The translations under genes and the position numbers were made by a program. A model generated the notes under the pieces. The model saw nothing but the letters and a program-made list of their open reading frames with translations. It searched no databases and was not told where the DNA came from. This document shows positions 4,954 through 35,223 of a stretch of DNA of 64,000 bases, one piece after another. The stretch comes from Escherichia virus ESCO5 (Duplodnaviria; Heunggongvirae; Uroviricota; Caudoviricetes). The stretch lies in IMG/VR virus record IMGVR_UViG_2974610597_000001; one strand, 5' to 3'. How positions within the stretch are numbered: the stretch's first letter is position 1; the number at the start of each line of letters is the position of its first letter.

Positions 4954-5499
4954 ATGATATTTACAAACTTTAAAAAATATATTCCTGAAGACCCTGAACT
5001 AAAAGAATTGGTAGAAGCAGAGAACATTCTTTTTCTTCGTTGCGATCAAGGTTACGATTGGTATGATTTACGTAGCACAGAATTCAATAACGATAAAATG
5101 AAAGTCGTTTTTGATGATCAAAATCGTATTGTGTTTTGGAATACTGATCCTACACTACTTTGCCCTGAAGATCTTTCTATAGCACAAGTAGACTTTAACA
5201 TAGATACTTTTGAGGATATTAGGAACAAGGTTCTGGATTTAGAAACCTTAACTCTTAAGAATAAAGAGTATTCCCGTGAAGAGTTGATGACACAAGCTAG
5301 TGCAAAAATTCGCTCTTTACAAGAAACAGCGGTAGCACTTATAACACCTTTACAGTATGCTAAAGATTTAGAAATGGCTACTGAAGACGAATTAGCTTAT
5401 CTTAAAAATCTTCAAGTTTATGTAGTTAAACTAAATCGTGTTCCGCTTCAAAAAGACTATCCTTACGCTATAGATTGGCCTACATTACCGACAGAATAA
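4954..5499 (+). CDS. Tail fiber assembly/chaperone-like protein
   Basis: 181-aa acidic protein immediately downstream of fiber gene (ATGA start/stop overlap); assignment by position only. Confidence 0.3.
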   Translation: MIFTNFKKYIPEDPELKELVEAENILFLRCDQGYDWYDLRSTEFNNDKMKVVFDDQNRIVFWNTDPTLLCPEDLSIAQVDFNIDTFEDIRNKVLDLETLTLKNKEYSREELMTQASAKIRSLQETAVALITPLQYAKDLEMATEDELAYLKNLQVYVVKLNRVPLQKDYPYAIDWPTLPTE

Positions 5500-5847: not shown

Positions 5848-8800
5848 ATGGCAACATTCCCAACATATCCAGCAACGTCTCTCGAACAGGGCGTAGACCT
5901 GGTTATTTTCTCATCTAACCAACTCCATGATGTTATTAATGGAAGTGCTACAGAGAGTATTGAAACAGAATCAGGGTTGATACCAACCCTGAGAAAATCC
6001 CTTGTTGACAACTTTTTCTTTAAAAGCCCATTGGATTGGGCGCAAGGCACAAACGAAACAGTTTTTAACCAACTACGTTATTTTCAGAATGGGGTATTGA
6101 GCGGTTATTATTATGCTCCTAATGCTACATTGGTAAACCCAATTCCTATGCAAGGGACTCCAGTAGGAGATAACAACTGGGTATTGTGGGGACTGAAGAC
6201 AGAACAACTAGCAACAGAAGTCACCCCTTGGGTATATTCTGGTGCAACTGGTTATGAAACAGTAATCAGTCCTCCCTACATCTTTGATAGTGCTATTGTT
6301 ACAATCAATGGTGTTATTCAGGTTCTGGGAGAAGCTTTCCGCATAGAAGATAGTAAAATCATTTTATCTGAACCTTTGGGACATGATCCTGCAACAGGAC
6401 TGCCAAACAAGCTTTTTGCCTATATTGGTAAAATCGTAGCTTCCGCAGATACAGATCCTAACTTAGAAAACCGTCTTGTCAGTTTAGAAACAAAAACTGA
6501 AGAACTGACAGAAAACATGGATAAAGTACCTTTACAAACTATTGCTCGTAAATACGGTTTGTTGGATGACGAAGTAGCTTACGCAACAGCGGGTCAATCA
6601 TTAACAGGGATTAAAGCTCTGTATGATCCGGTAGCACAATCTTCCTACACATTGCCTCCTAACATCACAGGGACTTTAACATCTTTGTCTGTTTCTGGAG
6701 TAATGACTTATTCTGGCGGATCTGTAGATCTTTCTGCATTAGCTGTTGAACGTGGACAGTTTGTTCATTTGCCTACAAGCTTTGGTAATAATGTAACTCT
6801 GACAGCTAAAAATCAGACGATTGGGCGTGGCGCTGGTCGCTATCGTTGGGCGGGAAGTTTACCAAAAAGTATTTTAGCTTCTGATACATTGGAAACAAGT
6901 GGTGGATTAGGTCCAAATGCATGGGTTCTAACTAATACAGAAGGACTGTTAACCCCTCGTGGTGGAACATACAACGATTTATTCGATGTTGTCCGCTTAT
7001 CAGAATTTGCTAACAATACAACTACCTATACCACACCAGAAGCAGCTTTCCAGGCGGCACTGTTAGCAGCAAAAGCTTCGAAAAGTAAGATTCTCGACGC
7101 TTACGGTTGTGATATGACTTTCACGACAAGCTCTTTTGATATTCAAGATATCACTTTGCGTGGGGGTGTGTTCCGTGGTCAACGCGATTATCGTGTGCAA
7201 AATGCTACAGTAGAAGGCACAACTTTCCGTAACTCTCGTGTTATGTATTGGGGTGGTGCTGTGCGCATGTTCGATTGTTTGTGGGACGGTGCTCCTCGCG
7301 CAGGTCAAGTTGGTAGCTTGGTATTCCAAGGAAACCCAATATCAGGTACTTTTGAAATTGATAATTGTACTTTTAAAAACGGGTTATATGGCATCCTTCA
7401 ACAAGGAACAGGGGAACCAGTAACACGCGGTGTCTTCCGTAACCTTACCTTCATGGACATGCAAGGTGATGCAATAGAACTGAACGTCATCAATAAACAT
7501 TATGATGATGGTTGTGTGATTGAGAATATTTACCTGTCTAATATTGATGGGACTAACGCTCCTATTCCTCTGTCCAACTGGGGTATCGGTATTGGTGTGG
7601 CTGGTAAAGGACCATATGGTTACGGAATTCCTGATGATCAATATTGCAAGAATATTACAATTCGTAACGTTTTTGCAAAACGTTGTCGTCAGATTGTCCA
7701 CGTAGAAGTTGGTCGTAATATTTCTATCGAAAACATTCATGGCGATCCAGATCAAACTGTATCTGTTGGGACAGGTTTGGCAACTGGCGCAGTTGTAATG
7801 TATGGAAGTAAAGATTTTACGATTGATGGTGTTTACGGAGAGCCTAAAACAGACGGTAGCACACTTGCAAGTAATATCCGTATGATTTATTTGGAGTGGG
7901 GAACTAACGCAGTTCTGGATGAAGAGGGCAATCCGGTAGTTCCGGCACAGGGCAGACCTTCAAACCCATGCTTTAACTATTCTGTTCGTAACATTCACAC
8001 CAAAACTGGGCGTGTTTTTGCAGGAGTTTCCGCTGGGCCAGGTTATGAAAACAGAGTCAGCTTTGAGAATATCCATTGTGCTGCGTTGCAGTTGTTCGGT
8101 GTAGCTTCTTGGCTTTCAATGTCTAACATCACCTGTAATATCTTTGATTGTGTTGGTCAACCTGAATCTGGTCCAGGGACATTTTATGATGGATTCTTCC
8201 GTAGAGAAAAATCTGTTCTTGAGATGGTTAACGTAAACTGTTACCCAGATGGCAAGACTATGGTTACTGGTCGCCCACAGTGGAGCCGTTGCCGTTACTC
8301 TGATATTCATCGTGTCAACTGTAATGTTGAAGCTAATATGTATACCAATATCGCAGGTGGTATTGGAGCTATTGTAGGGACAACTGGCAAAGTTTATTAC
8401 TTAGAGCCTAACCCTAGCCGAAACATTGATGGGATGCATTTCCCAACAGGGAAGGAGTTTGACAAAGGGGATATGATAGTCAAAGCGGATAATACGTTCT
8501 TCCTTGTAACAACAAGTGGGGCATACATTCCAGATATCCCAGCTTTCGGTATTCGAGCTACACAAGCAGGAGATACCTTCCTGACACAGAACTTGACTCC
8601 TAATGGGACAGCAACAAACGCTTCTTGGTTGTATCACTATCCTCTGTCAGCAGGAACACGTATCCGTATTCCTGGTGCTGGTGTAGGTGGAGCAGATTTG
8701 GACACAGTTATTACTCGTGCACCTTATCAAGATAATGATACGTGGACTAACCCAGTTAAAATAGACATTGCAGATCCAATTGTAACGCCTACGAGTGCTG

Positions 8801-26962: not shown

Positions 26963-27422
26963 GCTCCCAGTGTGTCCTTATATTCCGTTTCTTGAAGTAT
27001 AGAGCACCTTTAGTAACATCTAAAACAGACCGCAATTCAGGAAAATGTTTCTCTAAATAAAGTAAACGCTCCGCTATTGCTTTTGCTTCCTGCCATTTAT
27101 CTTTCTCTGTCACGTTAAAAGTTTTCGCATATGAGAATTGCCCTTTCTGGAACAAGACTCCCTTGACTGTGTTAGGGAAGTAGGCATCATTTCTTCTGTT
27201 GATTACCACATTCCCAACGGCATTCATTCCTTTTTTACCCAGACCGCGACCTTCTGCGTAAATTGCACAAGCTAATAGAATTTTATCATTATATTGCTTT
27301 GTACATTTGTGAACTACTTTAGCGGTTTTTACGTTTGCAGCTTCGGCTTTCGCCACAACAGGTGTAAATGTAAAAGCAGTTAAGGATAGTAACGCAACTG
27401 TTACAAAGTTTTTTATCAGCAA
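26901..27422 (-). CDS. Secreted cell-wall hydrolase, SleB-like (candidate endolysin)
   Basis: 173 aa; N-terminal signal/anchor MLIKNFVTVALLSLTAFTFTPVVAKA; LLACAIYAEGRG ... GNVVINRRNDAYFPNTVKGVLFQKGQFS matches SleB/Hydrolase_2 core. Confidence 0.6.
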   Translation of the reverse strand: MLIKNFVTVALLSLTAFTFTPVVAKAEAANVKTAKVVHKCTKQYNDKILLACAIYAEGRGLGKKGMNAVGNVVINRRNDAYFPNTVKGVLFQKGQFSYAKTFNVTEKDKWQEAKAIAERLLYLEKHFPELRSVLDVTKGALYFKKRNIRTHWERDMRLVYRDKVHGFYLPKGS

Positions 27423-27483
27423 ATTTTGCCTCCTTTTTAAGTTAACGAATTTCTAGTATAACACGATAGAGGCTTTATTGCAA

Positions 27484-27503
27484 GAGGGGGATTTCTCCCC
27501 CTC
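27484..27503. other. GC stem-loop in intergenic region (possible terminator after terD)
   Basis: GAGGGGGA-TTTC-TCCCCCTC perfect inverted repeat; no strong T-run. Confidence 0.3.
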
Positions 27504-27518
27504 AAAATCATTTGTTAA

Positions 27519-28121
27519 TTATGGACATTCATACCATTCTTTTTTACCACCGAAGGCCATTACCACATCGCAAATATCCAGACCAGCTTTACCTACACCA
27601 TATGCTTTCAGCTTCCATTCTCCATCTTCACGAACCAGGGAAGCCACGTGGCAGATTGTGTTGCCAGCTACTTCAGGAGCCAGGAAGTCAAAATCCAGAA
27701 TTTCCACATTACGCTCGGAGTCGAAGATTTTAAGCATACCTTCAGAAGCATGACCAAAACGTTTCAGACCTGTATCATCATCAATAGTCAGAACAAAGGC
27801 AATCTCTTGTGCATCAGGAGAGATTTTAGCCAGAGTAATATCAATCTGCTCCATGCTGCCAGTTCCATCACGAACATCGTCACCAGCAAAGGTAGAACGT
27901 TCAGGATCAAACTTATTAGCATAGCAAACCAGATGACGTGCAGACAGCATTTCAGGATTGCCAGCGGCATTGTGACGACAAACCAGTGCACTTACATCCA
28001 GATCCAGTTTAGAATCAGATTTCCAAGAGAACTCCAGGCGTAGTTCTTTCAGAGCCGGAGCAACTTTCTTCAGGGAAATTTTTTCGCTAGAGCCTTTTTT
28101 CAGGGAAATTTTATCAGTCAT
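27519..28121 (-). CDS. terD: TerD-family stress protein
   Basis: 200 aa; N-terminal ISLKKG...EKISLKK, DLDVSA, GDDVRDG, IAFVLTIDD, REDGEWKLKAYG match conserved TerD-domain blocks. Confidence 0.8.
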   Translation of the reverse strand: MTDKISLKKGSSEKISLKKVAPALKELRLEFSWKSDSKLDLDVSALVCRHNAAGNPEMLSARHLVCYANKFDPERSTFAGDDVRDGTGSMEQIDITLAKISPDAQEIAFVLTIDDDTGLKRFGHASEGMLKIFDSERNVEILDFDFLAPEVAGNTICHVASLVREDGEWKLKAYGVGKAGLDICDVVMAFGGKKEWYECP

Positions 28122-28136
28122 CTTTTGTCTCCTCTA

Positions 28137-28406
28137 TTATTTAAGTGTAATACCAGTTACAGTCAATTCTACTTCCAAAAGCTTAGATGTGTTTTGGATT
28201 GATACTAATTGTGCATGATGGTTTAGTTCTACAGCAGAATAATCATTTTCCCCATCATCTACTTTTAAATAAACAATGATTTCACTAAGGTCTAAACCAT
28301 TTTCGTCAAATGCATTTTCATAGACGAAAGTATCTCCTACATCCAAATCTTTAATGGTAAGGCATCGTTTATTTACTTTTTGCTCATCAATTTCGAAGTT
28401 TAACAC
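28137..28406 (-). CDS. Hypothetical protein (paralog of 29428..29772)
   Basis: 89 aa; shares DLDVGDTF(V/M)Y..A(F/Y)(D/E)(E/D)(N/A)GLD core with the 114-aa paralog. Confidence 0.35.
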   Translation of the reverse strand: MLNFEIDEQKVNKRCLTIKDLDVGDTFVYENAFDENGLDLSEIIVYLKVDDGENDYSAVELNHHAQLVSIQNTSKLLEVELTVTGITLK

Positions 28407-28635
28407 TTCTTCCTCCTAATATTATCTCCGGTTTATATATACGAAGAATTATAGCATTTTCATTTTCTTTGTCAACCCATTCTTCATAATCAGGCCATAC
28501 ATGAATCTCTACTCTACTTACAATATCTTCCATTCGCACAGTCCCAATGAAATACTCTTTGAGACTGCACATAATGAAAGCTTCTCTCTCGCGCCAATAA
28601 TTTTCTATGACTTGAGAGGCAAGCTCGTCGATCAT
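28387..28635 (-). CDS. Hypothetical protein
   Basis: 82-aa ORF with start/stop overlaps. Confidence 0.3.
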   Translation of the reverse strand: MIDELASQVIENYWREREAFIMCSLKEYFIGTVRMEDIVSRVEIHVWPDYEEWVDKENENAIILRIYKPEIILGGRSVKLRN

Positions 28636-29426
28636 TTTTTAGCACCTACTTTAACAACCCACTCTCCGAACTCTTCAGATAAGAGTTTGTCATAAAGCTC
28701 TGAATCTGTCAAGTCTAAATCTTTAATGCCAATAAAACCAACATTATCATAAGCATTTGCCAGTTCTTTCAGGAAGCCAAACTTCTCATTACCAACGCCA
28801 ACCATGAACCAATAAATAGGTTTATTCTTATTCTCTTCAATAAGACGACGAACAGCACTAGGATCACCATTCTCACCATCCGTCTGGAAGAATACAACAC
28901 CAGGGGTAACGTCAGCACCTGGTTCAGACACAGCTACAACCTTTTCACGCTCTACAGATACTGTTTCAGTTTTACCAAGCAGACGATTAAAGAAGCCTTT
29001 CTTTGGAGCCTCTTCTTGTACCACTTGTTTAGTGGTAATATATTTGGTAACAGTGCCAAAATACTCATCGTAGATATCTGCCATTACAGGGGCGTAATTT
29101 GTTCCACCTCCGATACGAACATTACGCATACATTTACCAACATAGTCATCGTAAACGTCTGCTGTTGCTGGAGTAAGCTCTTGGGAACTCGTATTGAAGG
29201 CCCACATATCAATTTGTTGATTATCGTCGAACAGCATACCAAAAGGAAGCAGTTTACCTACAAAATCACTCACTACCCCACTAGAATATAGACCATGCAT
29301 ACTACCAGAAATATCTAGAGCACATGCTACACGAAGAACAATCTTACCTTCATTCAGGTTCTTATTCTTTTTCAGAGAGAAAGCAAGGTTTTCTTGACGT
29401 TTTTTCAGGCTGATTTTATCGGACAT
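28632..29426 (-). CDS. von Willebrand factor A domain protein with TerD-like N-terminus (TerY-like)
   Basis: 264 aa; N-terminus MSDKISLKK near-identical to terD start; MIDAS motif ALDISGSM. Confidence 0.6.
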   Translation of the reverse strand: MSDKISLKKRQENLAFSLKKNKNLNEGKIVLRVACALDISGSMHGLYSSGVVSDFVGKLLPFGMLFDDNQQIDMWAFNTSSQELTPATADVYDDYVGKCMRNVRIGGGTNYAPVMADIYDEYFGTVTKYITTKQVVQEEAPKKGFFNRLLGKTETVSVEREKVVAVSEPGADVTPGVVFFQTDGENGDPSAVRRLIEENKNKPIYWFMVGVGNEKFGFLKELANAYDNVGFIGIKDLDLTDSELYDKLLSEEFGEWVVKVGAKK

Positions 29427-29427
29427 A

Positions 29428-29772
29428 TTATTTCTCCTTCTTAAGTGTAATGTTGGTAACTTCTAAATCTACTTCCACCATATTTGTATCTGGCGGGATG
29501 CAATGAGTATAGCCTCGTTGTGCTAGTGATCCATTAATACAAATCGCACTGTTTGTGGAATTTTTAATGAACACCAAGTTACGGTAGGTATCCAACCCTG
29601 CGTCTTCATAGGCATCATAATACATGAATGTGTCCCCTACGTCAAGATCTTCGAAAGCAATAGGTAAATCCTGACCTTTTTCTTCTTGAATATTGAATCT
29701 AAACACGCATACCTCCTCTACCAATTTTGAAGCCCAAATCGTAAGCTTCCTTAGTAATCTTTTGTAACTCAC
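29428..29772 (-). CDS. Hypothetical protein (paralog of 28137..28406)
   Basis: 114 aa; FEDLDVGDTFMYYDAYEDAGLD core shared with paralog. Confidence 0.35.
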   Translation of the reverse strand: MSYKRLLRKLTIWASKLVEEVCVFRFNIQEEKGQDLPIAFEDLDVGDTFMYYDAYEDAGLDTYRNLVFIKNSTNSAICINGSLAQRGYTHCIPPDTNMVEVDLEVTNITLKKEK

Positions 29773-30262
29773 TTATAGGAAGTGTTACAAGAGGATCATC
29801 TTCTTCAATTTCCATCTTGTCATCTTCTGTTTCAATGAGAGTATTATGCACTTTGTGATAAGGGTTGTCAACACGTTTAAACTTATTCTTTTCTGTGCTG
29901 AAAAAACAATCTGGATCTTCTTCACCATCACCCCAACCTTGATTAGGATCTCCGTCAGATTGTTCTGTAGGGATTTCACCTGTAAAGTACTCTTCCAGCA
30001 CCATAGCAATACCGTCCCTTGGATTTGAGGAATGCATTAAATCACAAACCTTACCCCAATCCATAGCCCATTCGAACCGTTCACGAACGCCATTTTCATC
30101 CTCTTTTCCAGAGAAAACACAACCATAACTATCATAGTTGCCATACATCTCTTCAATAACAACACCGTCTTTCAAAAGAAAGAGGTAGCAAGGTGATCCG
30201 TCGAAAGAAGTAGAAAGGGCAGCTTTGCCCGATTCTTTGCACAAAAAACTAAAACAACCCAT
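29699..30262 (-). CDS. Hypothetical acidic protein
   Basis: 187-aa ORF, Asp/Glu-rich C-terminal half. Confidence 0.35.
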   Translation of the reverse strand: MGCFSFLCKESGKAALSTSFDGSPCYLFLLKDGVVIEEMYGNYDSYGCVFSGKEDENGVRERFEWAMDWGKVCDLMHSSNPRDGIAMVLEEYFTGEIPTEQSDGDPNQGWGDGEEDPDCFFSTEKNKFKRVDNPYHKVHNTLIETEDDKMEIEEDDPLVTLPISELQKITKEAYDLGFKIGRGGMRV

Positions 30263-30465
30263 TACAAACCCTCCTTCAGATTATCAAGAGCTACAGTGGT
30301 TTCACAAAATTCTCCATAAGCTTTATGATGTTCCAGAAAAGCTTCGGGTCCACCCCAGTCATTATCTTGTGTATTCCAACCATCAATAAAAGCATCTTCA
30401 ATGATTGTGATCAGTTCTTGTCGGGTTAACTGGATAATATTAGGATCGTTATCGTAGTTAAACAT
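30262..30465 (-). CDS. Small hypothetical protein
   Basis: 67-aa ORF. Confidence 0.3.
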   Translation of the reverse strand: MFNYDNDPNIIQLTRQELITIIEDAFIDGWNTQDNDWGGPEAFLEHHKAYGEFCETTVALDNLKEGL

Positions 30466-30631
30466 CTTCTTCCTCCTCTAAAATATGAAACCCGTAATTA
30501 CAATAGTCCTGAAAGGTTTCGTGCGCAAGATCTTCTATATCCTCTTGAGACATATCATCTTCAATTTCGATATCCACAACCTCATTGCATCCACACCAAG
30601 CAGTTTCAATATTCACTCGTAATATTTTCAT
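30458..30631 (-). CDS. Small acidic protein (missed by ORF track, 57 aa)
   Basis: ATG at 30631 overlaps upstream stop (TAATG); MKILRVNIETAWCGCNEVVDIEIEDDMSQ...; fills an otherwise empty 170-bp gap. Confidence 0.3.
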   Translation of the reverse strand: MKILRVNIETAWCGCNEVVDIEIEDDMSQEDIEDLAHETFQDYCNYGFHILEEEEDV

Positions 30632-30828
30632 TACTCCTCCTCCTCATTGAAGTCAATATCTGCAAGGAGTTCGAATTTACGGAAGTTACGACAACCTTCA
30701 TAAATATAACAATCACGACAAACTGCTAGAACACTTGGGGGATATATGCCTCCCATCGGTGCGAATCGTTTTTCGTCATCATAACGGACACCAATGTCTT
30801 CATCAATTATATAGATACGGATTCTCAT
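30631..30828 (-). CDS. Small hypothetical protein
   Basis: 65-aa ORF. Confidence 0.3.
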   Translation of the reverse strand: MRIRIYIIDEDIGVRYDDEKRFAPMGGIYPPSVLAVCRDCYIYEGCRNFRKFELLADIDFNEEEE

Positions 30829-31937
30829 TTACCAAGCCCTCGTTTCACAGCAGCTACCATCCCGTCTTCCAGAGATTGAACTTCATTAATATAATCAACA
30901 CGAGCAGCACGGGCTTCCGTATTGATGCGGTTAGTTTCTTCCAACATCTTAACCAAGTTTTCCTGATCGTGACGCAGAGTTTCAATATCCAACACTTGAC
31001 GGTTAGCCAGTGCTGCTGCTTCGATCTGATTCTGTGTGGCAAGATCGCTACCTAGTTTAATTGCCAGGTTAAATTCATCAAGAACGTTATTCTGCGTCTC
31101 TGCTGCTTTCATTTGACGTAAGCTCTCGATATACATTGAGAAGTTAGCAGAGTAAGCAGGAATAACATTATTTACTATGTTACGCGCAGATCGCATTAAG
31201 CTTGCAGAAACTTTTTGCATACCTTGTACACGCGGTCCCATTTGGACACACAGTAGGCGCAACGCCTTTAAATCTGCAATACGAATCTCCAGGAGATCCA
31301 AAGTATCTCGGATCACTTGTCGCTGTTCTACGGCATCTTCTGGAAGAGCAGCCAAAGCTTGTTCTTCTTTTTCATAGGTTGCTGTTAGAAGCTGCATATC
31401 TCGGTTCAAACTTGCAGCATATTGTCCAATAGCTTGGTGTAGCTTTTCAAGATATACCAAGGAATCTTCTTCTTTGCGAATATCCATTTGAAGGTTCTTT
31501 ACCAACTCTTCAATACGGTTATTAACATTATCAAACTCCCCAAACAGGTCTTCTTTCATACCCATAACTTTTTTAATGAGTTTAGTAATACCCTTGCTTT
31601 GTTTAATAGAGTTTGGATCAAGTTGTTTTGCCTGTTTAATCAAGGCTGTGAGTCGTTCACTCATCTGATCGCCTTGATTACTACGTTGATGTTTTAACAC
31701 CTCGGCATTCAAGGAACGCAAGGTTGTTCCTGCCTCTGCCCCAATCTCTTCGATCTCTTGTCGGGTCATAGAAGGTAAAACTGGAACTTCTTGCGGTGCT
31801 GCTGGTGCATAAACAGGACTGGCATCTAACACACTTGGAGCAAATACAGATTTACTTGCATCTGTTGTTGCAGCGAATACACTCATTTCAGACTTCTTCT
31901 GACCACCAGTAGCTGCTTTTAAAAATGGACTTGTCAT
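30825..31937 (-). CDS. TelA-like (toxic anion resistance family) coiled-coil protein, tentative
   Basis: 370 aa, long alpha-helical/coiled-coil architecture with Ala/Pro-rich N-terminus; size, composition and Ter-gene context suggest TelA/KlaA family; no diagnostic motif verified. Confidence 0.3.
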   Translation of the reverse strand: MTSPFLKAATGGQKKSEMSVFAATTDASKSVFAPSVLDASPVYAPAAPQEVPVLPSMTRQEIEEIGAEAGTTLRSLNAEVLKHQRSNQGDQMSERLTALIKQAKQLDPNSIKQSKGITKLIKKVMGMKEDLFGEFDNVNNRIEELVKNLQMDIRKEEDSLVYLEKLHQAIGQYAASLNRDMQLLTATYEKEEQALAALPEDAVEQRQVIRDTLDLLEIRIADLKALRLLCVQMGPRVQGMQKVSASLMRSARNIVNNVIPAYSANFSMYIESLRQMKAAETQNNVLDEFNLAIKLGSDLATQNQIEAAALANRQVLDIETLRHDQENLVKMLEETNRINTEARAARVDYINEVQSLEDGMVAAVKRGLGK

Positions 31938-34149: not shown

Positions 34150-35223
34150 TTAAACAGCAGCTTCTTCTTTTTCAGGGAAGATAAAGCTTGCAATAACACC
34201 AAGAGATAATGTGCCTAGAACAATCATCAGACTTACGTTAGGGGAAATATCATGCGGGAGGAATGACCACTTGGCATGAAGTGTTTCACCGAACGGGTGA
34301 TACATAAGTTTAGCACCAACAAACACCAGAACCACAGCAACAGCTTTCTCTAAGTGAACCAGATATTTCACAGCTACACTTAACACAAAGAAAAGTGCAC
34401 GTAAACCAAGAACAGCCATCAGCATTGCAGAATAAACTAGCAGAGGTTCTTGTGTCACACCGATTACAGCCGGAACTGAATCAAAAGAGAAGACAATATC
34501 TGTAAGCTCAATAACAAACACACAAAGAAGAGCAGGAGTTGCATATTTAATACCATTCTTAATGGTAATGAACTTTTCACCATCTAGTGCATTGTGCACA
34601 GGCAGAACTTTACCTACTAAACGAACAGCCCAATGCTTAGAGTAATCAATATCCTCTTCTTCGTCACCACCTTTGATGATAGCCACGGCAGACCAAGCTA
34701 CAATCAAACCGAACAACACTTGGACCGACCAATGAAGGTTAAACAAAGCGGTCCCTGCTGCAACAAAAATACCTCGGAAGACAATGGCTCCTGCAATCCC
34801 CCAAAGTAAAATCTTATGTTGAAGATGTGTGCTCTTAATTCCAAAGCTTGCAAAAATTGCCATGAATACCATCAGGTTATCTACAGAAAGACTCTTTTCC
34901 AACACATAGCCACTTAGGAAAAGCGCGGCAAACTCTTTACCATGTTCTACCCAAATGAATGCGTAATATCCTAAAGCTAAAGCAATCCAAAAAACAGACC
35001 AAAGCAAAGCAGATTTAATTCCAATTTCTTTATTTTTACCATGTTCTACCCAAATGAATGCGTAATATCCTAAAGCTAAAGCAATCCAAAAAACAGACCA
35101 AAGCAAAGCAGATTTAATTCCAATTTCTTTATTCTCTTTATGACCAAAGAAATCGATACCAATAGACAATGCCAAAATACCAACTAAAACAACTACATCA
35201 ATAATTGGGAAACCGAGTTGCAT
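34150..35223 (-). CDS. terC: TerC-family integral membrane protein, containing an in-frame 33-aa tandem duplication
   Basis: 357 aa, multiple TM helices; signature LEKSLSVDNLMVF; segment KNKEIGIKSALLWSVFWIALALGYYAFIWVEHG occurs twice consecutively. Confidence 0.75.
   Translation of the reverse strand: MQLGFPIIDVVVLVGILALSIGIDFFGHKENKEIGIKSALLWSVFWIALALGYYAFIWVEHGKNKEIGIKSALLWSVFWIALALGYYAFIWVEHGKEFAALFLSGYVLEKSLSVDNLMVFMAIFASFGIKSTHLQHKILLWGIAGAIVFRGIFVAAGTALFNLHWSVQVLFGLIVAWSAVAIIKGGDEEEDIDYSKHWAVRLVGKVLPVHNALDGEKFITIKNGIKYATPALLCVFVIELTDIVFSFDSVPAVIGVTQEPLLVYSAMLMAVLGLRALFFVLSVAVKYLVHLEKAVAVVLVFVGAKLMYHPFGETLHAKWSFLPHDISPNVSLMIVLGTLSLGVIASFIFPEKEEAAV
34939..35136. repeat. Near-perfect 99-bp tandem direct duplication inside terC coding sequence
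   Basis: 34939..35037 and 35038..35136 identical over about 95 bp (accatgttctacccaaatgaatgcgtaatatcctaaagctaaagcaatcc...), diverging only in last few bases. Confidence 0.9.

Follow-up and report, generated by a model that had tools for sequence, protein, structure and literature searches.

Ter systems occur widely, on plasmids and chromosomes and in phages, and their association with resistance to tellurite, colicins and phages is long-standing. Their comparative-genomics definition as tellurite resistance and phage inhibition stress-response systems was reportedly the work of Anantharaman, Iyer and Aravind in 2012. Here we describe a region encoding a TerD-domain protein and a vWA (TerF-like) protein within a 64,000-nucleotide (nt) stretch of Escherichia virus ESCO5 (IMG/VR record IMGVR_UViG_2974610597_000001), hereafter the window, whose coordinates are used throughout. 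Every gene of the TerD-vWA region is carried by the minus strand. The locus has the same component set as described Ter systems (TerC, TelA, TerD and a TerF-type vWA protein, with a phosphoribosyltransferase and a phosphatase annotated nearby), but its vWA protein is free-standing rather than fused to TerD as in TerF, and lineage-specific small genes, whose products are predicted beta-barrels, are interleaved among the Ter genes. TerF-type fusions (PF02342 plus PF10138) contain the same two domains as the ESCO5 TerD and vWA proteins, whereas ESCO5 encodes each domain in a gene of its own, the two lying about 1.3 kb from each other and separated by two additional genes.

The Ter gene neighbourhood, with TerC, TelA, TerD and vWA in one cluster, was found in ESCO5, and because of this gene content the locus is a phage-borne Ter module of which the region studied here is the vWA(TerF-like)-TerD core. 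Ter modules in phages were already noted by Iyer et al. 2021 (PMC7824862), and that article proposes a role in competition with superinfecting phages or in protection of the infected cell from stress. Our literature search found no report of tellurite resistance, phage inhibition or colicin resistance for Phapecoctavirus, the genus of ESCO5. What is new at this locus is a duplicated small gene belonging to an uncharacterised accessory family (PHROG 'unknown function'). The local duplication by itself is ordinary, amounting to two long-separated paralogues in a phage genus that is well sequenced, but a TerD/vWA leader that changes in step across phages and bacteria points to a specific interface that could be mutated or swapped.

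A leader common to vWA-TerF-like and TerD proteins

The vWA-TerF-like protein gp203 (28632..29426, 264 amino acids) is a member of PF10138 (E=1.6e-37; 130.1 bits against a cut-off of 29.4), matched in two stretches that are split by an insertion. Its first 20 residues, MSDKISLKKRQENLAFSLKK, are encoded at 29367..29426 (minus strand), begin with MSDKISLKK and contain two hSLKK motifs. The Pfam model starts only at residue 31, so this conserved leader is an extension that it does not cover. When 23 vWA-TerF-like proteins with identities down to 25%, including a bacterial Neobacillus protein, were aligned (alignment A1), the pattern x-I/V/L-S/D-L-x-K ... h-x-L-x-K was conserved in all 23 sequences, with L7, K9 and K20 at 90% or above. 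The leader was found in phages lacking any small gene (loci L004-L006, L019 and L022), in phages with one small gene (phi92 and L011-L015) and in Accumulibacter and other bacteria. It was also recognized in the TerD-vWA fusion proteins P0059 and P0062, where hxLxK motifs occupy the linker directly before the vWA domain (P0062, ...ISLSKQRLISLEK...LINLAKQVSTVLTK). The vWA-TerF-like family thus carries an N-terminal leader of two or three hxLxK motifs, similar to the motifs with which the TerD domain opens. A first-pass annotation of this DNA had proposed that a TerD-like leader became fused to the vWA domain in one of two duplicated copies; that bacteria, fusion proteins and phages lacking the duplication all have the leader makes it an ancient feature of the family and not a recent event in this phage.

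The TerD-domain protein gp206 (27519..28121, 200 amino acids) belongs to PF02342 (E=3.2e-28; 98.9 bits against a cut-off of 25.3, residues 5-179). Its canonical N-terminal motif pair, KISLKKGSSEKISLKK, spans residues 1-19, and the start of the protein aligns to VSLSKGGNVSLSK (VSLSKGG-NVSLSK) of Protein Data Bank (PDB) entries 2KXT and 3IBZ. Comparison of gp206 with the Klebsiella pneumoniae TerD (PDB 2KXT/2KXV) and the Streptomyces TerD-like 3IBZ gave alignments over nearly the full length (E=1.5e-15 to 2KXT and 2.9e-14 to 3IBZ), albeit at low sequence identity. The acidic calcium-binding stretch of 2KXT, GDNRTGEGDGDDE, aligned with GDDVRDGTGSMEQ in gp206 and appears only partly kept, as several acidic positions differ; G80, D82, D85, G86, G88 and E91 were invariant among the phage TerD proteins. 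The near identity of the TerD and vWA starts (MTDKISLKK and MSDKISLKK), already noticed in the first-pass annotation, holds for 8 of the first 9 residues, and ISLKK occurs within the window in these two proteins only. Beyond the leader the two proteins belong to different Pfam families with different folds, and BLASTP between them returned only a 20-residue N-terminal match (E=0.033). The TerD protein of phi92 has the same start, though no small gene precedes it.

Genome-by-genome comparison of the two N-termini, extended to 80 further viral, 29 bacterial and 39 metagenome loci, of which the bacterial and metagenome ones came from scans with narrower alignments than A1, showed that within each genome the vWA leader co-varies at the protein level with the N-terminus of that genome's own TerD. 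In a related trio of loci (L004, L011 and L016; vWA proteins 66-70% identical) all four motif copies carried I, V and L respectively, as exemplified by L016 with MTEKLSLKKRSETVKLSLKK in vWA and MAKLALKKSDGKLSLKK in TerD. In a large gut-phage group, L was replaced by M in every one of the five copies (IDMSK/INMSK/IDMTK in vWA, INMSK/ISMTK in TerD). Further matched vWA/TerD pairs were ISLSK/ISLSK (L142), ISLTK/ISLTK (L149), VNLVK/VSLVK (L164), LSLEK/MSLEK (L138) and IDLKK/INLKK (Accumulibacter). A permutation test across 21 lineages on positions 1-4 of the first motif counted 61 of 84 identical positions in comparison to 43.4 expected, a value reached in none of 200,000 permutations (P<5e-6), and position 4 alone was matched in 12 of 21 lineages in comparison to 5.2 expected (P=3e-4), these P-values being indicative only. 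No description of a co-varying leader was found in the Ter literature covered by our search, outside of which lay the 2012 work of Anantharaman, Iyer and Aravind.

The codons of these motifs were informative on how the likeness is kept. The motif serine is encoded by AGC in the ESCO5 vWA gene and by TCC in terD, a split retained across most orthologues, and codon tables showed that vWA and TerD motif copies mostly differ in serine codon class in addition to other synonymous sites. Such differing serine codon classes argue for selection at the protein level and not for gene conversion. Locus L008 was unlike most lineages in that its vWA and TerD first motifs (5275-5310 and 6570-6605) have identical codons, ATTAGTCTGAAAAAA, which may reflect a local micro-conversion event.

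Two further observations concern vWA leaders elsewhere. A metagenome locus (L139:2501-4100) encodes two tandem vWA-TerF-like paralogues, both with M-type leaders (LNMSK ... LNMRK ... LCMTK), and TerD was not seen within the fetched flank. A vWA-TerD region with leaders nearly identical to those of ESCO5 was found in L111 (JAEZZU010000159.1), a metagenome-assembled genome (MAG) labelled 'Proteobacteria bacterium', and probably represents phage DNA that was assigned to a bacterial MAG in binning.

The small paralogous genes

Two small genes accompany the vWA-TerD pair in ESCO5. The small1 gene (gp205, 28137..28406, GTG start, 89 amino acids) lies immediately 5' of terD and its paralogue small2 (gp202, 29428..29706, GTG start, 92 amino acids) immediately 5' of the vWA gene; the first-pass annotation had the small genes following their partners, an order that the minus-strand orientation reverses. 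It was right that the two proteins are paralogous and have the stretch DLDVGDTF(V/M)Y in common: 30 of 89 residues (34%) were identical in an ungapped BLASTP alignment (E=4e-14), and both genes matched phrog_11278 (7e-45 and 7.6e-50). The second gene had been extended to 29772, which would give 114 amino acids. The GTG at 29706 is preceded by a GAGGAGG ribosome-binding site (RBS) 5 nt upstream, coincides with the RefSeq start and is exactly where homology to small1 and to all relatives begins, so that 29706 is most likely the true start.

True paralogy of the small genes implies that a local gene duplication occurred. Nucleotide identity between them was 49.4% overall and 33.7% at third codon positions, and since these positions are near saturation the duplication is ancient. 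The local duplication proposed in the first-pass annotation therefore stands for the small gene, and not for a whole unit, as TerD and vWA are not paralogous; the census of the window found two small genes, one TerD and one vWA. The two units are also not structurally identical because gp204 lies between the vWA gene and small1. Self-comparison of the region did show similarity beyond the N-terminal motif, both between the small genes and in the junction DNA, where the small-gene 3' end, RBS and first nine codons of the downstream gene are alike in both copies (local alignment score 48; shuffled control 20.7 +/- 2.3, maximum 28) and where repeat families D1 and D2 recur with a spacing of 1300-1305 nt. 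We attribute the similar junctions to a conserved small-protein C-terminus (V-x-L-x-V-T-x-I-T-L-K), a consensus RBS and pre-existing leaders. The small-gene stop codons are 1-15 nt from the start of the next gene, and the vWA RBS (AAGGAG) is located within the last codons of small2 (the KKEK tail).

In a bootstrapped neighbour-joining tree of the small family, the small2 sequences, which precede vWA, formed a clade with 99% support that is common to Phapecoctavirus and to Justusliebigvirus phi92 (gp174), and the small1 sequences, which precede TerD, formed a clade with 72% support found in Phapecoctavirus-like lineages only. Their sisterhood received just 38% bootstrap support, and attempts to date the duplication or to name the ancestral copy from the tree failed on this account.

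AlphaFold2, given an alignment of 14 sequences, returned a confident all-beta barrel for the small protein (mean predicted local distance difference test score (pLDDT) 82.6). The protein of about 90 residues is predicted to be an SH3-like beta-barrel, for which the nearest fold class would be the SH3-like small barrels of FeoA, the DtxR/IdeR C-terminal domain, Tudor/KOW and EF-P domain I. Searching a viral structure set with this model gave significant matches to its own family only; NCBIfam and PADLOC gave no match for the small proteins, Pfam gave only a sub-threshold DUF5006 match for small1, and PHROGs lists phrog_11278 as of unknown function.

A word-indexed search recovered about 15 small-family clusters, all on phage contigs of 140-150 kb, and an exhaustive profile search added a further dozen distant relatives of 87-91 amino acids. 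Giant repetitive proteins also returned by the small-protein profile (P0079, P0082, P0085, P0088, P0090 and others) were rejected as summed low-information matches; three of these that were scanned against Pfam (P0085, P0088 and P0090) are surface proteins of mixed type (DUF11, HYR, fn3), in which short repeated segments gave the match. All nine members retrieved via the small protein itself sit directly 5' of TerD or vWA, in a variety of layouts. A single small gene lies between vWA and TerD in L011, L012/13, L014 and L167, or precedes the vWA-TerD pair in L015 and phi92. A tandem pair lies between vWA and TerD in L016/17, and the order small-vWA-gp204-small-TerD is found in ESCO5, phiWec188 (L003) and L008/L009. 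In L166 a small gene precedes TerD and the contig is cut upstream. The small gene is lacking in the close relative L019, in the more distant L004-L006 and L022, and in L007. The small proteins evolve fast, with 43-49% identity between lineages whose TerD proteins are 90% identical. The family is thus a mobile accessory of phage vWA-TerD modules, present in zero, one or two copies at varying positions; its gene neighbourhood ties it functionally to the vWA-TerD pair, and it has been repeatedly gained, lost, moved and duplicated. For phrog_11278 and its distant relatives, this neighbourhood tie and the varying copy number and position suggest an accessory or regulatory subunit.

The same slots are used by a second family of small acidic proteins, observed before vWA in L004 (7653-7985, 110 amino acids) and between vWA and TerD in L007 (8744-9094, 116 amino acids). 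These end in ...VVTGFIY and ...VVSGFYM, appear homologous by eye only and are unrelated to the small genes whose products are predicted to be SH3-like.

Proposed role of the leader and alternative explanations

We favour, with moderate confidence, an interpretation in which a Ter vWA-TerD core is combined with two ancient small paralogues, the family-wide co-varying leader serves as a docking element and the small barrels are accessory. Mechanistically, we infer that the leader would be a common docking or assembly element of TerD and vWA, which could either bind a partner that both share or join the two proteins by strand-to-strand pairing, and through which a free-standing vWA and TerD would cooperate in the manner of the TerF fusion. 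The small barrel proteins would be accessory subunits or regulators made together with the downstream partner, and the small1-TerD pair of Phapecoctavirus may have acquired its own strong sigma-70-type promoter inside gp204. Several observations weigh against this interpretation. Alignment of the TerD and vWA N-terminal regions with hhalign gave a probability of 12.6%, which leaves homology unsupported, and AlphaFold2 modelled vWA leader residues 7-20 as a helix and not as a TerD-like beta-hairpin; the corresponding segment in solved TerD structures is part of the beta-sandwich. The leaders match poorly in L007 and in L153/L162, the lineages entering the permutation test are not fully independent and the motifs were collected by regular expression and by eye. 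The small genes are dispensable for core function, because many relatives lack them while retaining vWA, TerD and the leader, and the sisterhood of the two small clades, on which the order and timing of events depend, is weakly supported. A stronger version is possible but on balance unlikely: the hxLxK leader would be a co-evolving interaction tag that assembles TerD and vWA or docks them on a common Ter partner, and the small barrels would be tag-binding adaptors or chaperones that were duplicated and reshuffled to tune assembly. If this is true, the Ter system, which is poorly understood, would gain a defined protein-protein interface open to mutation.

The paralogy of the small genes, the similar junction DNA and the 8 of 9 identical N-terminal residues could also be explained by duplication of the small gene together with the 5' end of terD, followed by fusion of the copied TerD leader to vWA in this phage lineage. 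We consider this highly improbable, since the vWA leader occurs in all relatives including bacteria and phages without the duplication, phi92 has both leaders with only one small gene, and the motif serine is AGC in one gene and TCC in the other. Moreover, with synonymous sites near saturation, an equally old leader still at 8 of 9 identity needs a separate constraint. Repeated short-tract gene conversion would supply DNA-level concerted evolution of the two leaders in the absence of functional coupling. It accords with all motif copies changing together, with the identical first-motif codons of L008 and with the location of the genes, which are direct neighbours in the majority of phage loci and in several bacterial ones and lie no more than about 2 kb apart in some of the remainder. 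Yet the tracts would span only some 15 nt, the matching extends to cases in which the spacers are unlike in both length and sequence, and most lineages encode the same amino acids with a different serine codon class (AGY versus TCN) and different synonymous sites, the codon tables indicating that synonymous divergence of motif copies within a genome is largely as high as that between genomes. Gene conversion as the general cause is therefore improbable, if less so than duplication of the unit.

A further alternative is that the small genes are selfish or neutral 'morons' at permissive sites and that the N-terminal likeness is generic, reflecting Lys/AAA-rich starts that favour translation. Frequent gain, loss and movement of the small genes, their absence in many relatives, their fast evolution (43-49% identity where TerD is 90%) and the use of the same positions by unrelated small open reading frames (ORFs) such as gp204 and the 110- and 116-residue proteins of L004 and L007 are all in keeping with it. 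The direct 5' placement next to TerD or vWA of nine out of nine family members in very divergent phages is hard to explain without a functional link, however, and start-codon context cannot account for the leader because the motif is found at internal sites too, both repeated as a second copy and within the linker of TerD-vWA fusions; the position-specific co-variation was also significant. We regard this alternative as rather unlikely, though it is a more serious contender than gene conversion.

The surrounding Ter module and other observations

In ESCO5 the order of transcription is TerC (gp191), SprT-like, TelA (gp197), three tiny ORFs, gp201, small2, vWA, gp204, small1, TerD and a SleB-type endolysin. 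The TerC-type membrane protein gp191 lies at about 34150..35124 (minus strand; RefSeq annotation converted with an offset of 21399), and RefSeq places a putative phosphoribosyltransferase and a phosphatase just upstream. TelA (30825..31937, minus strand) matched PF05816 (3.2e-33) and phrog_5890, which is annotated as tellurite resistance, and Pfam assignments in the region comprised TerD, vWA-TerF-like, TelA and SprT-like. In related loci TerC is also upstream of TelA-vWA-TerD, and the order TerC ... TelA ... vWA-TerD-endolysin recurred in L004-L008, L012 and L016. Scanning 7 proteins against the PADLOC models of anti-phage defence and anti-defence gave no match. Among the three tiny ORFs that separate TelA from gp201, gp199 (30458-30631) gave a sub-threshold match to DUF7167 (23.2 versus 24.4 bits), and its L008/L009 equivalent gave the same weak match. 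In phi92, an extra gene of 200 amino acids without ESCO5 counterpart (gp171, L002:6788-7390) is inserted between TerD and the endolysin, so this junction is another variable slot; the sole Pfam match of gp171 was a weak one to Cupin_3 (E=0.011), below the cut-off.

The vWA protein gp203 was modelled by AlphaFold2 with a mean pLDDT of 91, and its nearest solved folds were the copine-type vWA domains of RGLG1/2 and BON1. Residues 38-42 (DISGS) fit the metal-ion-dependent adhesion site (MIDAS) pattern (DxSxS ... T ... D), and in alignment A1 positions D38, S40 and S42 were conserved at 90% or above, with T109 and D183 invariant; by this pattern gp203 has a putative MIDAS-type metal site. Residues of about 125-169 were predicted to form a long beta-hairpin insertion with a KKGFFNRLLGK motif. 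Clostridia-type relatives and some from metagenomes (L113, L119, L123 and L160) have a similar motif (M-x-LFGFFGKK or MGLFSKK) ahead of the leader, at the very N-terminus, and it seems that a short peptide, possibly membrane- or partner-binding, moved position within the vWA family.

The gp204 gene (28387..28635, minus strand, 82 amino acids, phrog_22387, unknown function) overlaps the vWA stop and the small1 start, and among the lineages examined it was found only in those that are Phapecoctavirus-like (ESCO5, L003 and L008/L009). The possibility that gp204 is a remnant of gp201 (187 amino acids, minus strand, between the three tiny ORFs and small2), which would have indicated a larger duplicated segment, was rejected as the two have no significant similarity. 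Inside gp204 lies a candidate sigma-70 promoter with an extended -10 element (28448..28475, minus strand; TTGACA, 16 nt, TGnTATAAT), the sole exact match to TTGACA-N(15-19)-TATAAT within the window, whose -10 end precedes the small1 start codon by 42 nt. The two hexamers, their spacing and the TG are kept in phiWec188 (L003) and in L008, though gp204 is only about 58% identical there, and a rare ATA codon is present at the promoter site in all three. Transcription of small1-TerD could thus start separately at this candidate promoter.

Positions 27400-30300 of the window were 100% identical to Escherichia phage ESCO5 (Stephanstirmvirinae, Phapecoctavirus; NC_047776.2), and about 65 further phage records matched this region at 95-99%. 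These records included Campylobacter phage B15 (MG065650.1) and Acinetobacter phage vB_AbaM_ABPW7 (OP562383.1), at 98.3% and 98.5% identity respectively, and the small1 protein of Klebsiella phage ZCKP1 (NC_047994.1) was 98.9% identical to that of ESCO5; the host labels of these three records look doubtful.

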